64,000 bases of DNA from Deltaproteobacteria bacterium. GTDB lineage: Bacteria; Myxococcota_A; Bradymonadia; REDH01. Below the pieces are notes generated by a model. That model searched no databases, was not told where the DNA came from, and was given only the letters and a program-made list of their open reading frames with translations. The stretch lies in NCBI GenBank assembly GCA_007693585.1, contig REDH01000113.1, positions 2,500 through 66,499 on the forward strand, read 5' to 3'. This document shows, piece by piece, positions 9,387 to 44,099 of the stretch. Numbering within the stretch: the first letter of the stretch is position 1; each line of letters begins with the position of its first letter. A program made the position numbers and the translations under genes.

Positions 9387-9962
9387 TCAGGGCGCGAAGG
9401 CCTCGGGTCTCACGTTCACCGAGCGGTACTCGGGAGGATGCACCTGAATGTACGCGTAGCCCGTGGCGCCGTGGCAGGCGTTGCAGGTGACGGTGAACGC
9501 GGCGAACCCATCGAGAAACGTCTCGACGTCCTCGGCCGCGATCGCCTCGGCCATCGCCGGGATGGCCGTCTCGAGCCAGGGCGAGCCCGCCTCGGCGTGG
9601 TGCGGACGCCGGACGAGGGCGCGCTCGATGACCTCCTCGAGCTCCTCGAGCTGGTACGCGGCGTACGCCCAATTCTCGTCGACACCGGCCCAGTACAGCT
9701 GCGCATGGCGCTGTCCGACGGCCAGCATCGCCGTTCCCATTCCTCCCATGTGCCGAGAGAGTTGCAGGAGCTGCTCCTGCAGATCACCGCTCAGCCAGGT
9801 GTCGTCGGGCAGCGGGGAGAGGTCGGCCACGCGAGCGTCCGCCGGCGCGGGGGGTGGAGCAGGGCCCTCCGATGACGTGGGCTCCGCGGTGCATGCGAAC
9901 AGCAGCAGCGCGAACAGCGCGACAGGCAGGGGTGCGATGGTTCCGTGAGCGGGCAAGGTCAT
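9387..9962 (-). CDS. Lipoprotein with a single C-terminal CXXCH haem-binding motif (class II / cytochrome c-prime-like, tentative)
   Basis: Start MTLPAHG at 9962, lipobox LLFAC and helical composition. The only CXXCH (CNACH) lies about 30 aa from the C-terminus, as in four-helix-bundle class II cytochromes c. Confidence 0.5.
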   Translation of the reverse strand: MTLPAHGTIAPLPVALFALLLFACTAEPTSSEGPAPPPAPADARVADLSPLPDDTWLSGDLQEQLLQLSRHMGGMGTAMLAVGQRHAQLYWAGVDENWAYAAYQLEELEEVIERALVRRPHHAEAGSPWLETAIPAMAEAIAAEDVETFLDGFAAFTVTCNACHGATGYAYIQVHPPEYRSVNVRPEAFAP

Positions 9963-35110: not shown

Positions 35111-35701
35111 CTAGAGGTCCGGACCCACGGGCATCCCCTCGGGAACGCACAGACCGTAGCCCGTGCGGCAGTCGCGGGTGCAGATCCCGAAACCCTCCCA
35201 GGGCGTCCCCGAGCAGTTCGACGGGCGACATGCCTCACGAATGTTCACGCAGCGATACCCGGGGTCGCAGGCGACCTCGGCATTGCACAGATGATAGCGA
35301 TAGCCAGGGGCCTCCGCGCCCTCGGAAGGACGAGCCTCCGCTGTGCCATCGCCCGCGTCGGCCGGCGGCGCCAAATGGCCCTCCTCCTCCTCGTCGCAGC
35401 GGCCCGGGCGGGCCACCTCGACATCGGCACACGCCGCTTCACACGCGTTCCCGTAGGTGCGCCCGTCCACGCCACAGACCGGCTCGTAGATCATCGGACA
35501 CACGCAGCCGTCGGCGGCTTCCATGGGCTCTGCGGGAGTCGACGGCATCTCCACGGGCTGCGAAGGCATCGGCTCCGCCTGCATCGCCTCGTCGCCGTCG
35601 GGAACCGAGGACGAACCCGGACAACCCCAGCCGCCGACCACGGCGAGCAACAACACGGACGACAGGATGGAAGTACGCTTGTGTTCCGTCAGCATGGACA
35701 T
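35111..35701 (-). CDS. Secreted/lipoprotein with a Kazal-type serine protease inhibitor domain plus a second Cys-rich module
   Basis: CVCPMIYEPVCGVDGRTYGNACEAACADVEVARPGRC fits the Kazal pattern (PVCG.DG.TY.N.C). Hydrophobic leader ends in GGWGC. Start MSML at 35701. Confidence 0.75.
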   Translation of the reverse strand: MSMLTEHKRTSILSSVLLLAVVGGWGCPGSSSVPDGDEAMQAEPMPSQPVEMPSTPAEPMEAADGCVCPMIYEPVCGVDGRTYGNACEAACADVEVARPGRCDEEEEGHLAPPADAGDGTAEARPSEGAEAPGYRYHLCNAEVACDPGYRCVNIREACRPSNCSGTPWEGFGICTRDCRTGYGLCVPEGMPVGPDL

Positions 35702-35825
35702 GGCTCCCGAGATTGAGGCGGCTTCACTCCCCGAGCGGCCGGACCGGGCCGGCGTCGGGTCATGCCGTGGGGTCGCACCCCCACCCCTGCCCGTCAATGA
35801 CGACGAAACGGTGCAGCATCTTCAC

Positions 35826-35970
35826 CCGGGGTGATCGCAAGGTCCGGAGCTCAGCCCGGCATGGCACCGATCGCCGGCCCGCATCCGAAGCAGGGACCAG
35901 TATCATGGGGGGCCACAGGGATGTGCCTCCAACCGGGAGGGGCGCATTGACGACTCTTCGACAGCCCTGC
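35826..35970. repeat. Conserved ~145-nt non-coding element, copy A (paralog of 42161-42305); possible structured RNA or cis-regulatory leader
   Basis: Direct hand alignment with copy B: long identical blocks separated by variable segments, with single-nt indels between blocks. Same position and orientation relative to a downstream minus-strand lipoprotein gene. Confidence 0.85.
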
Positions 35971-35995
35971 ACCTTCACCGCTCCCCGTTCCCCCG

Positions 35996-37147
35996 TCATT
36001 GACTGTGGGGAAGGCCCGCCGGGTCACCCCCACCACGGCCCGCACTCGTGGCCACCCACTCCTGAACACTCCCGAAGGGGGCCAGCGCAGACCGGAATCG
36101 CGCCGTCCAGCGCGCGCTCATCTGGGGCCGCACGTGCTCCACGGCGCCGACGAAGTCCCCCGGATGTCGCTCGAGATACCGAATCCAGCGGTCCTGGACC
36201 GGCCCCGCCGGAACCGCCGCATCGAGGCCACGGTCGAGCGCCTCGAGCACGTACAGCGCCGCCATCCGGATGTCCTCCCGCTTGTGGTGGACCAGCGGGT
36301 CCCGCGGACGCAATCCCATTCCCTCGAGCCTGGCGGTCTCCTCACGCGCCCAATTTCGCACGTCCCGGGCAAGCGCCGTACGCTCCGCAGGCGTCCCGCC
36401 CCGGAAGTCCGGCCCCACCGTGTCGTGCAGCCGAGCCATCAGCGCTTCGTCGCGGCCAGGCTCGAAACGCCGAACCGCTGCGATCGTTCGCTCGTTGTCC
36501 AGCATGGTCACGAACCCCGCAGCCATCCGCGCCCGACCGGACGCGTCGAGCCCATCGAACGCCGGATGTGCCGCAACGGTCCGGGCCACTGCAGCCTCCA
36601 GCTCGTCACGCCCCGCCGCATTCGGGCCGATGAGCGCCCGGTCCAGTCCGGCCTGCAGGCGCGCCCAGTCGCTTGACGTTCCATGACTGCCCGCCTGCTT
36701 CGCCCGCGCAAACTGCCCCGCCATCGCCGCCACGCTGCGCCGCGGCCGAAACCGAGCCCCCTGCTCCTGAGCCAGACTCACCCAGTCCGACAGCGTGCGA
36801 TCGAGCGCCGCGTCCGACCGCGCCGCAGCGTCCGCCACCTCCGCCAGCCCCGATGCCGCCGCCGACCGTGACTCCACGCCGGCACAGGCCGCCTCCAGCA
36901 CCGCACGACCGCACAACTCACCGCCAGAGCGCGAACGACGTGCAGCCTCCTCGGCGAGGCGCGAGCCCCCCTCGTTCACCGTCCGCGAGGAACCCTCGAA
37001 CCCCAGTCGCGACATCAACCGAGACGACCCACCCAGCACGTCATTGACCTCGCGATCGCCGGACGGCTTCGGAGCCTGCCCTTCCTTCACACCCTCCGCA
37101 GGGCCCGGGATCCGTCCCGGTGAACACGCGCCTCGCACACCGTCCAT
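35996..37147 (-). CDS. Hypothetical protein (Ala/Arg-rich, helical, no recognised domain)
   Basis: Only non-junk frame between the element and rnhC. Start set at MDGVRG (37147) because the longer ORF would overlap the rnhC start region. No motif recognised. Confidence 0.45.
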   Translation of the reverse strand: MDGVRGACSPGRIPGPAEGVKEGQAPKPSGDREVNDVLGGSSRLMSRLGFEGSSRTVNEGGSRLAEEAARRSRSGGELCGRAVLEAACAGVESRSAAASGLAEVADAAARSDAALDRTLSDWVSLAQEQGARFRPRRSVAAMAGQFARAKQAGSHGTSSDWARLQAGLDRALIGPNAAGRDELEAAVARTVAAHPAFDGLDASGRARMAAGFVTMLDNERTIAAVRRFEPGRDEALMARLHDTVGPDFRGGTPAERTALARDVRNWAREETARLEGMGLRPRDPLVHHKREDIRMAALYVLEALDRGLDAAVPAGPVQDRWIRYLERHPGDFVGAVEHVRPQMSARWTARFRSALAPFGSVQEWVATSAGRGGGDPAGLPHSQ

Positions 37148-41468: not shown

Positions 41469-42053
41469 TCAGCAGTGGCGTTGATAGCAGTCGCGCTCGA
41501 TGGCGCTGCGCAGGGACCCGGCGATGCTCTCGGTCAGCGGGGTCACCTCGTCCACGACGTCCCCGCCCGCCGTCTCGTCCACAGGCACCTCGTGCCAGGC
41601 GAATTGATCGTGCTCGTTGCACCCGGACCACAGGCTGTACCCCCAGCGCGCAGGCGCCTCGCCACGCCACAGGTCCACGTAGAGGTGACTGCGGGCGCAG
41701 AACGTGTGCTCGTCGGGATCGACCAGCGCCGCATCGTAGTCGACCCCGGTCGTCATCCCGAGCACCTCGTCGGTGGCCAGCGTCATCGCAAGCGACGCGG
41801 CGATCACCTCAAGCATCGGGTCGTCCGGGGAGGGGATCGCACGGTTCATGCCCACGTCCTTGAACGTCACCATCCGGAACGGGCCATCTCCATCGACGCT
41901 CACGTACCACGGAGAGTGGTGCTGCGGATGTACCTCCGCTTCCGCCACCTGAGGATCGGGGTCGTGCTCGACCGCGGCCCGCTGGCACCCTCCAGCCATG
42001 AGAAGCGCGGCCACCAGAAGTCCTGTCCGGCGCAGCATCTGCAGTCTGTTCAT
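41469..42053 (-). CDS. Lipoprotein, hypothetical
   Basis: Start MNRLQMLRR at 42053 preceded by AGGAGGACGGA. Lipobox LMAGGC. First gene of the lipoprotein-dus-lipoprotein-ATC hydrolase-like string. Confidence 0.6.
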   Translation of the reverse strand: MNRLQMLRRTGLLVAALLMAGGCQRAAVEHDPDPQVAEAEVHPQHHSPWYVSVDGDGPFRMVTFKDVGMNRAIPSPDDPMLEVIAASLAMTLATDEVLGMTTGVDYDAALVDPDEHTFCARSHLYVDLWRGEAPARWGYSLWSGCNEHDQFAWHEVPVDETAGGDVVDEVTPLTESIAGSLRSAIERDCYQRHC

Positions 42054-42160
42054 TCCGTCCTCCTGGCGCCTGTCCCGCGCGTGCGGGCTCGGCCCGTCCG
42101 CCCAGCGTAGCGAGCGTGGCGACGCCCGGCAAGCGCTCGTCCGCCTCCGACCCGGCGATT

Positions 42161-42305
42161 CCGGGTGGTCGCAAGGTCCGGAGTTGAACCCGGCATGGCA
42201 CCGTGCGGCGGTCCGCATCAGCCGCGAAGACTCGATTCATGGGGGGGCCAGGACGATGTGCAATCCACCGGGAGGGGCTCAGGGACGACCCTGCGATGGC
42301 CCTGC
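42161..42305. repeat. Conserved ~145-nt non-coding element, copy B (paralog of 35826-35970)
   Basis: See copy A. Lies 107 nt upstream of the ATG of the 41469-42053 lipoprotein gene and 163 nt downstream of the TonB-like gene stop. Confidence 0.85.
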
Positions 42306-42467
42306 CCGGCGAACGCGGGAACCGGACGGGGCCCGGTCCGCTCGAACCGGTCCGCAGGAAGATGCGGCCGAAGCGGCGATGCCCTCCCCCCGGCCCGCTC
42401 GTCCCGGATGGCTGTGCGACACCCCGGCGCCCGCCCCGGGCGGTTCCGGACCGCCGGGGGAGCGCCA

Positions 42468-44099
42468 TCAGCGCTCCCGGGATGCCCGATCCTGCCGCTC
42501 CGACGACTCGTCGCCCCCGTCCGCCGCCAGCAGCCGGACGTCGACCCCGAAGGTCCCGCACTGGCGCTGGTCCCGGTGGAACCTCCAGTGGATCCATGCG
42601 TTCCCGTCCGGAGACACCATCGCCTGCGGGGGCGACCGATGGGGCCCAATCGTCTGCACGATCCGGATCGCCTGGGCATCGAACGTGAGCTGCCCGGATG
42701 TGCGGATCACGTTCACCTCCACCACCTCGCCGTGCTGCGAAATCCCCATCTCCAGATGCACCCAGAGCCGCCGGTCCGAGAGCGGATGGTCCGCCGGCAC
42801 GCCGAAGTCCAGCGAACGCAGATAAGCCGGCCAGCGGGCATGGATCTTGTCGTGCAGGTAGTGAATGTAGCCGGCGAACGCGTCCGCCCGCGTGTTCAGA
42901 CTCGTCTCCCGGCCCGCCCGCGCCCGCACGTCGTGATTCTCCAGCGCGCGCCGGAGCTGCTCCCACTCCGCCTGGTGGTCCCCGAGGAAGCCCCTCGCGC
43001 GCTCCCGCGCGGCCACCCTGTCCCGCAACCCATCGTCGTCAAGCGAGAACACGTTCGCCCAGGACTCCGCGTCGAACGCCGCAGCGCTGCGCGCGATCGA
43101 GTGCACCCCCGGGTCGGGCAGGTCCTCGACCGCGTCCCGGACGATCAGGCGATCCACCATCTCCTCCGGCGAGAGCCCCTCGTCCGCCGCCGCCTCGTCA
43201 GCCCGTGCCGCCTCCTCCCGCACCGCCTGCGCCTCCTCCAGCTCTCGCTCGATCGCCCGCTGCTCGTCCTCCTCGACCTCCGCCTCGGCCGGGGCGGACT
43301 CGTCCGCGGACGTCCCGTCCTCGACCCGCTCCTGCGCACCATCCGCGGCCGGCACCTCCCCCTCCTCCACCGGCGCGGCCGCCTCGGCGGAGTCCCGCTC
43401 CTCAGGCCGGTCCGGCACATCGGCGTCCGGCACATCCGCGTCCGGCACATCGGCGTCCGGGTCCTCGACCGGCTCCTCGGCCTCACCCTCTTCGCCCCGG
43501 CCCGCCTCGGGGGCCGTCTCCTCGGCGACCGTCTCCTCCTCCGCCACGTTGTCGACCTCGGCGAGGTACTGCGGATCGTCGGGCGCGTCGGTGCCTCGAT
43601 CGGGCTGATGCACCGACCGAATCGCCTGCCGGTCCCGAAGGGCGGGCGGTTCCGTTTCCTCGGCGACCTCCGGCTCCTCCTCGATCTCCTCGACCGGCTC
43701 CTCCTCGACGTCGGCGTCGGCGACTTCGTCCGGGTCCTCCGCGGACTCTTCGCCGTCCTCCGGCCGGGGCCATGACTCCGGCGGTACGAGGGGTTCCTCT
43801 GCCGTGTCGTAGACCGACACCACCTCCATCGGGCCCTCGTCGTCCTCCACCGGGGGGCGGCTGGTGAGCCAGGCCCCGATCGCCAGCAGCAGCAGGACGT
43901 GCAACCCGATACTGGCCAGCCCCGTCGCCATCCATCGCTGTCTCCCGGGAGCTGCACTGCCCTCCCGGGACGACGAGTGACGAAGGCGAGGTGGCACGGG
44001 TGGACCGTCGGTGCGAGAGTCGTGCACGGGCCGGTGGAGGAGCCGCGGGGACGGCAGCGGCCGGCGAGGCGCGGATTGACGACGCAGGGCTGCGTGCAC
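42468..44099 (-). CDS. TonB-family protein: N-terminal TM anchor, very long acidic linker, C-terminal TonB-like domain
   Basis: TM segment ATGLASIGLHVLLLLAIGAWL, about 250 aa of Glu/Asp/Pro/Ala linker, then C-terminus ..VHLEMGISQHGEVVEVNVIRTSGQLTFDAQAIRIVQTIGPH. Alternative start at MATGL (43931). Confidence 0.65.
   Translation of the reverse strand: MHAALRRQSAPRRPLPSPRLLHRPVHDSRTDGPPVPPRLRHSSSREGSAAPGRQRWMATGLASIGLHVLLLLAIGAWLTSRPPVEDDEGPMEVVSVYDTAEEPLVPPESWPRPEDGEESAEDPDEVADADVEEEPVEEIEEEPEVAEETEPPALRDRQAIRSVHQPDRGTDAPDDPQYLAEVDNVAEEETVAEETAPEAGRGEEGEAEEPVEDPDADVPDADVPDADVPDRPEERDSAEAAAPVEEGEVPAADGAQERVEDGTSADESAPAEAEVEEDEQRAIERELEEAQAVREEAARADEAAADEGLSPEEMVDRLIVRDAVEDLPDPGVHSIARSAAAFDAESWANVFSLDDDGLRDRVAARERARGFLGDHQAEWEQLRRALENHDVRARAGRETSLNTRADAFAGYIHYLHDKIHARWPAYLRSLDFGVPADHPLSDRRLWVHLEMGISQHGEVVEVNVIRTSGQLTFDAQAIRIVQTIGPHRSPPQAMVSPDGNAWIHWRFHRDQRQCGTFGVDVRLLAADGGDESSERQDRASRER
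43411..43455. repeat. 15-bp x3 in-frame tandem repeat (encodes DADVP x3) inside the TonB-like linker
   Basis: TCCGGCACATC(G/C)GCG repeated three times on the plus strand. Confidence 0.9.

Follow-up and report, generated by a model that had tools for sequence, protein, structure and literature searches.

The stretch of DNA analyzed here, a window of 64 kb with a G+C content of 69.6%, contains two copies (A and B) of a short intergenic element, which lie ~6.3 kb apart in the same orientation and between minus-strand genes (Table 1). On the minus strand, copy A is preceded by the gene for a 383-aa protein and followed by that for a Kazal-domain lipoprotein; the order around copy B is the gene for a 487-aa TonB_C-like protein, copy B, the lipoprotein B gene, and Dus. 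Copy A starts 25 nt past the stop codon of the 383-aa gene and ends ~121-130 nt ahead of the start of the Kazal lipoprotein gene, and copy B is found 162 nt past the stop of the TonB_C-like gene and 107 nt ahead of the start of lipoprotein B. This placement, between the stop of one minus-strand gene and a downstream minus-strand lipoprotein gene, is as described in an earlier interpretation made from the letters alone (hereafter referred to as the sequence-only reading). The same sequence is present in the Logan assemblies of SRR7901804 and SRR7901806, and the homologues retrieved in this work carried the source labels Bradymonadaceae, Sandaracinaceae or Myxococcota.

Protein comparison agreed with the earlier view that the genes flanking A and those flanking B are unrelated, apart from a stretch of 45 aa over which the C-termini of the two upstream proteins are marginally similar (E 0.006). 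This similarity is located at 35996-36150 and 42700-42880 and includes the beginning of the weak TonB_C match. Based on sequence, the two upstream proteins may be very distant paralogues. At 42440-42480, the stop codon of the TonB-like gene is overlapped by a strong G+C hairpin, GGGAGCGC-TGAT-GGCGCTCCC, which the terminator scan reported below missed because the hairpin has no T-tract.

Table 1. Coordinates of the two putative MITE copies, their termini, their flanking direct repeats, and the neighboring genes in the 64-kb window
Feature	Position	Strand	Remarks
Kazal-domain lipoprotein gene, downstream of A	35111..35704	-	Pfam Kazal_1 E 4.8e-8; 194 aa as called in L007
Putative left target-site duplication of A, CATCTTCACC	35817..35826	.	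9/10 match to right flank
Putative MITE copy A	35827..35969	.	143 bp, non-coding; ~77% identity to B; no Rfam match
Left terminal inverted repeat of A, CGGGGTGATCGCAAGGTC	35827..35844	+	11/18 to reverse complement of right end, P=0.005
Right terminal inverted repeat of A, CAGGGCTGTCGAAGAGTCG read inward	35951..35969	-	15/19 to ISArsp11 IRL
Putative right target-site duplication of A, CACCTTCACC	35970..35979	.	
383-aa gene, upstream of A	35996..37147	-	No Pfam/NCBIfam family; not ISAs1 transposase; not at relative's L027 locus
Lipoprotein B gene, downstream of B	41469..42053	-	Lipobox visible in sequence; 33 homologues
Putative left target-site duplication of B, CCCGGCGATT	42151..42160	.	8/10 match to right flank, first 8 exact
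Putative MITE copy B	42161..42304	.	144 bp, non-coding
Left terminal inverted repeat of B, CCGGGTGGTCGCAAGGTC	42161..42178	+	13/18 to reverse complement of right end, P=2e-4
Right terminal inverted repeat of B, CAGGGCCATCGCAGGGTCG read inward	42286..42304	-	13/19 to ISArsp11 IRL
Putative right target-site duplication of B, CCCGGCGAAC	42305..42314	.	
487-aa protein gene, weak TonB_C similarity, upstream of B	42468..43931	-	

Extent and sequence character of the repeat pair

Homology between the two stretches, as proposed in the sequence-only reading, was recovered by MAFFT, blastn, and nhmmer. The copies align end to end with 76.6-77.1% identity (MAFFT; blastn over 144 nt, E ~1e-25), and in the MAFFT alignment the homology stops sharply on both sides. 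The repeat therefore stands as described, with its exact ends shifted from 35826-35970 and 42161-42305 to 35827-35969 (A) and 42161-42304 (B). A whole-window repeat scan returned the A/B pair as the sole sizeable repeat of the 64 kb. No third copy was detected in the window, either by blastn with permissive scoring or by nhmmer (--max), which hit only these two places.

Mismatches between A and B were distributed over the three codon phases as 9/12/13, and for each of the six frames in either copy GC3 was 0.63-0.71, compared with 0.81-0.91 in the genes of the window. Since the mismatches have no codon periodicity and GC3 is below that of the window's genes, the element was considered non-coding, and the earlier claim that conservation is at the nucleotide level holds. 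A coding element was considered and rejected: every frame yields 'conserved peptides' because the DNA itself is conserved, but GC3 and the mismatch phases argue against it.

All of the conserved blocks listed in the sequence-only reading were found in both copies, but the proposed clustering of differences between these blocks was barely beyond chance. Thirty-four of the 145 columns of the global A/B alignment differ. These formed 23 runs, with 26.3 expected (P=0.10), and the longest perfect block, of 15 nt, was such as random placement gives (P=0.44); the number of bases in perfect blocks of 10 or more was mildly high (P=0.036). Divergence is roughly uniform along the element and compatible with neutral decay. 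At 77% identity, perfect blocks that alternate with variable stretches are a product of chance and are not, alone, a sign of RNA-level selection. With respect to the indels noted earlier, the one at the left end (GGGG vs GGG) can equally be read as a substitution.

Inverted termini, flanking direct repeats and likeness to the ISAs1 family

Each copy is bracketed by its own short direct repeat, at homologous boundaries and with a different sequence for A (consensus CA(T/C)CTTCACC) and for B (consensus CCCGGCGA(TT/AC)). Significance was estimated from 50,000 random window positions at the same spacing. With fixed boundaries, the P values of the direct repeats were 7e-4 (A) and 3.6e-3 (B); because the boundaries were picked after the repeats had been seen, 81 boundary offsets were also allowed as a partial control, which gave P=0.011 for A and P=0.075 for B. 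A longest-common-substring test of the flanks gave P=0.026 for A and P=0.007 for B, the latter with a shared substring of 8.

The ends of each copy form imperfect inverted repeats, with arms of 18 bp that are only 61-72% complementary and that read C(G/C)GGG... at one end and ...CCCTG at the other. The arm pairings compared were CGGGGTGATCGCAAGGTC with CAGGGCTGTCGAAGAGTC for A (11/18) and CCGGGTGGTCGCAAGGTC with CAGGGCCATCGCAGGGTC for B (13/18). Both right ends read CAGGGC inward, and the left ends, CGGGG in A and CCGGG in B, each share 4/5 positions with CAGGG. A pattern derived from the termini, CNGGGNNNTCGNANNGTC, was matched exactly at all four ends of A and B and nowhere else in the window. 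The same boundaries maximize the direct repeats, give the best inverted-repeat match, and coincide with the edges of the A/B homology. A terminus-like 18-mer, CCGGGGTGTCGCACAGCC, with one mismatch to the inverted-repeat pattern, was seen on the minus strand at 42410-42427, 105 nt from B. The spacer around it has no significant similarity to the element, and the 18-mer is probably there by chance, or else is a very decayed solo end.

In the ISAs1 family, the terminal inverted repeats are 14-22 bp long and begin with CAGGG, and the direct repeats are 10 bp (PMC11946415). For ISArsp11, which belongs to this family, the left inverted repeat (IRL) is CAGGGCTGATGCAAAGTCG and the direct repeat is 10 bp (PMC6305408, Table 3). 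We scanned this published 19-mer against both strands of the window (127,964 positions). The single best match was the right terminus of A, which agreed at 15/19 positions and in the correct orientation. For B, the right terminus (13/19) was among the 12 best positions of the window, and the left terminus matched at 12/19. The H-repeat of E. coli K-12, which encodes YhhI and thereby a match to the NCBIfam ISAs1 transposase (E 1e-123), likewise starts with CAGGG (L031:9245) and ends with CCCTG (L031:10525).

The element is thus similar to ISAs1-family insertion sequences (ISAs1 of Aeromonas salmonicida, ISArsp11 of Arthrobacter, and the E. coli H-repeat) in its CAGGG...CCCTG-type termini, in the length of its inverted repeats (within the range of 14-22 bp), and in its 10-bp target-site duplication. 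It differs in being 143-144 bp long and without a transposase gene, whereas family members are 1.2-1.5 kb, and in having G or C at position 2 of its left termini where the family has A. Of the ~35 window ORFs tested, none was identified as a transposase, of the ISAs1 or any other type, which indicates that the element is non-autonomous. A full-length parent insertion sequence was not found in the available sequence, that is, in 64 kb of this genome.

Bacterial MITEs, such as the Correia elements of Neisseria, ERIC of enterobacteria, and RUP of pneumococcus, are short, non-coding, intergenic sequences with inverted termini and a target-site duplication. They are often co-transcribed with neighboring genes, and their presence or absence differs between relatives. 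The element resembles bacterial MITEs generally in size, in its non-coding and intergenic nature, in its inverted termini and target-site duplication, and in being present in more than one copy. It differs from them in its parent family (the target duplication of Correia elements and RUP is TA, and both are associated with other IS families), in that two diverged copies are seen, and in having no strong predicted secondary structure. REPs are palindromes of 20-40 nt without target duplications. As with REP/BIME sequences, the element is an intergenic repeat of a GC-rich genome, and the closest relative found carries REP-like hairpins, GGCGGGGCATGGCCCCGCC, at the corresponding place after its TonB-like gene; unlike them, it is 143 bp long, does not form a simple palindrome, and is flanked by duplications. 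REPs were therefore rejected on anatomy, as were retrons and Tn3-derived TIMEs, the latter having a 5-bp duplication and GGGG ends. Integron attC sites carry an inverse core RYYYAAC and a core GTTRRRY at their two ends and are found behind cassette ORFs in the vicinity of an integron integrase. An attC site was also rejected, since by inspection the termini are CAGGG/CCCTG and there is no GTTRRRY core, and no integrase was found among the ORFs tested.

Closest relative and wider searches

Distribution of the element was analyzed in the closest relative that we found, which shares 84% protein identity for FtsZ and 82% for Dus (Logan SRR32456877/78/30; loci L024-L028). No copy was present in ~35 kb of unique sequence from this relative, which took in the stretch ahead of its Kazal lipoprotein gene, indicating that the element is lineage-specific. 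In locus L027, the Kazal lipoprotein gene directly follows RNase HII, without the 383-aa gene and without the element, and an 882-aa gene precedes Dus in place of lipoprotein B. No clean empty site was found in the relative, whose loci are rearranged and whose upstream regions are not alignable. Gene order in the window departs from that of the relative exactly at both element sites (35996-37147 and 41469-42314, compared with L027 9793-10000 and 14086-14311). Both copies are thus located at gene-order differences, and elements of this kind may be markers of local rearrangement or occur together with it.

A total of 33 homologues of lipoprotein B were found, and the loci examined (L006, L008, and L009) had no element upstream. 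In L006, a 25-nt sequence (GGTCGTCGGTGAGCCCCCTC..., 9936-9960) with 84% identity to part of B is found ~60 nt ahead of a distant lipoprotein B homologue. This match had an E value of 0.03 in a small database and nothing else of the element is present there, and it is probably due to chance.

Exact block patterns, consisting of two pairs of conserved blocks, were also scanned for further family members. Only chance matches were obtained in 185,579 species genomes, JGI metagenomes, and IMG/VR, the genome of the window itself being outside both large collections. A blastn comparison of the element with plasmids likewise gave chance matches only.

The TonB-like gene of the relative is followed by two REP-like hairpins, GGCGGGGCATGGCCCCGCC (L025 8549-8567 and 8609-8627; L024 14239-14253), and three independent assemblies of the relative end at or just past this hairpin. 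The hairpin, which is unrelated in sequence to the element described here, suggests a multi-copy palindromic repeat family in the relative's genome.

Alternative readings and interpretation

The sequence-only reading had proposed three candidate roles: a cis-regulatory leader or riboswitch, an sRNA, and a small repeat element. The Rfam search that it had suggested (Rfam 15) matched no family in the window at the gathering score; when hits up to E<=10 were admitted, the two copies yielded noise only, with Hammerhead_II and Guanidine-II at 15.5 bits each, far under their cut-offs. A cis-regulatory 5' leader RNA on the minus strand, riboswitch-like or protein-binding and co-transcribed with the lipoprotein genes, would fit the shared orientation of the copies and their position 107-125 nt upstream of lipoprotein start codons, and the element is similar to Rfam riboswitches and 5' leaders in this upstream position, in size, and in its alternation of conserved and variable stretches. 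RNAalifold predicted 38 pairs on the minus strand, four of them compensatory, and several are G-U pairs that would be mismatches on the plus strand and so favor the minus strand. However, compared with dinucleotide shuffles, fold z-scores were +0.83/+0.75 for the minus strand and +0.01/+0.53 for the plus strand, indicating no extra stability, and the covariation, which comes from two sequences only and from a structure derived from the same two, was reached by 29 of 500 column shuffles. Unlike a conserved leader, the element has no family match and is missing upstream of the relative's orthologous Kazal gene (L027/L028) and of three lipoprotein B homologues. It has instead the hallmarks of a transposon, and a leader would leave both the copy-specific direct repeats and the ISAs1-like termini unexplained. 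We consider a 5' leader very improbable. An sRNA transcribed independently from either strand of two paralogous genes would agree with an intergenic, conserved, non-coding element, for which ~145 nt is a typical size, but no sigma-70-like promoter or intrinsic terminator was detected in or near either copy. This role, which also finds no thermodynamic signal on either strand, no Rfam match, and no conservation in the relative, and which does not account for the target duplications and inverted termini, is extremely unlikely.

Two further readings dispense with RNA. The copies could be a DNA-level regulatory region, an operator or promoter array common to two co-regulated lipoprotein genes, given that they lie upstream of both genes and contain several perfect blocks of 12-15 nt. 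Perfect blocks of that length are, however, expected by chance at 77% identity, no sigma-70-like hexamers are present, and the element is missing from the orthologous promoter region of the relative. By inspection, the GG/GC spacing of a TGGCAC motif does not fit sigma-54 and differs between the copies. More generally, a scan for sigma-70, sigma-54, and ECF promoters was negative, and their spacing, judged by eye, was not conserved. A shared regulatory region is accordingly rated as highly improbable. Alternatively, the pair may be what is left of an intergenic region (a unit of TonB-like gene, spacer, and leader) that was copied by segmental duplication or gene conversion, with no transposition involved. 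The 45 aa shared by the C-termini of the upstream proteins (E 0.006) and the short distance and common orientation of the copies are in favor of such an event. Against it, the homology ends sharply on both sides, the downstream proteins are unrelated, and the spacer beside B is unlike both the element and the flank of A. Segmental duplication also would not make a different 10-bp repeat for each copy, nor ISAs1-type termini, and there is only a very small probability that it explains the pair.

Copies A and B are very likely non-autonomous MITEs derived from, or mobilized by, an ISAs1-family insertion sequence, as judged from their termini and flanks. The term applies because MITEs are defined as short non-coding elements that have inverted repeats at their termini and a target-site duplication that differs from copy to copy. 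The last of the three candidate roles, a small repeat element, is thus the one that agrees with the data. The sequence-only reading had itself pointed out that terminal inverted repeats and target-site duplications, the marks of a MITE, would speak against a conserved regulatory element, and these are what we found. In the proposed mechanism, an ISAs1-type DDE transposase whose gene lies, or once lay, elsewhere in the genome would act in trans and recognize the terminal inverted repeats of ~18 bp (consensus CNGGGNNNTCGNANNGTC; family hallmark CAGGG). The element would then be inserted into two unrelated intergenic targets via a 10-bp staggered cut, and repair of the cut would leave each copy flanked by a 10-bp direct repeat of its own.

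Copies A and B differ by ~23%, and their duplications carry one and two mismatches (3/20, 15%), indicating that both insertions are old. A and B are probably fossils that can no longer move, and the decay of both copies and duplications is consistent with old insertions that have decayed neutrally. We infer that the element has no dedicated cellular function. The shared orientation and the distance of ~110-125 nt to the lipoprotein genes are taken as a coincidence or, at most, as having a passive effect on the 5' UTRs; purely random insertion does not predict such a shared orientation and distance, a counter-point that is weak evidence at n=2. It is unlikely, and markedly so, that a MITE was domesticated here such that minus-strand 5' UTR hairpins (loop GCACAUC; stem ending GAUGCGG) became a shared RNA module co-regulating the lipoproteins. 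If this were the case, it would imply co-regulation of envelope lipoproteins in an uncultured Myxococcota lineage. Assignment of the copies as MITEs takes a spurious entry off the list of candidate new riboswitches and sRNAs and is otherwise mostly of value for annotation: it places on record a previously uncatalogued, probable ISAs1-type MITE in an uncultured Bradymonadia/Myxococcota-like genome.

Elsewhere in the window, a 16-nt unit, CCGGCCGGGCAACACG, is present in four tandem copies at 2131-2194, immediately ahead of a methyltransferase gene (2301-2915) or at its start. One Logan contig from the same organism (L030) starts approximately at this tandem repeat, as if the assembly had broken there.
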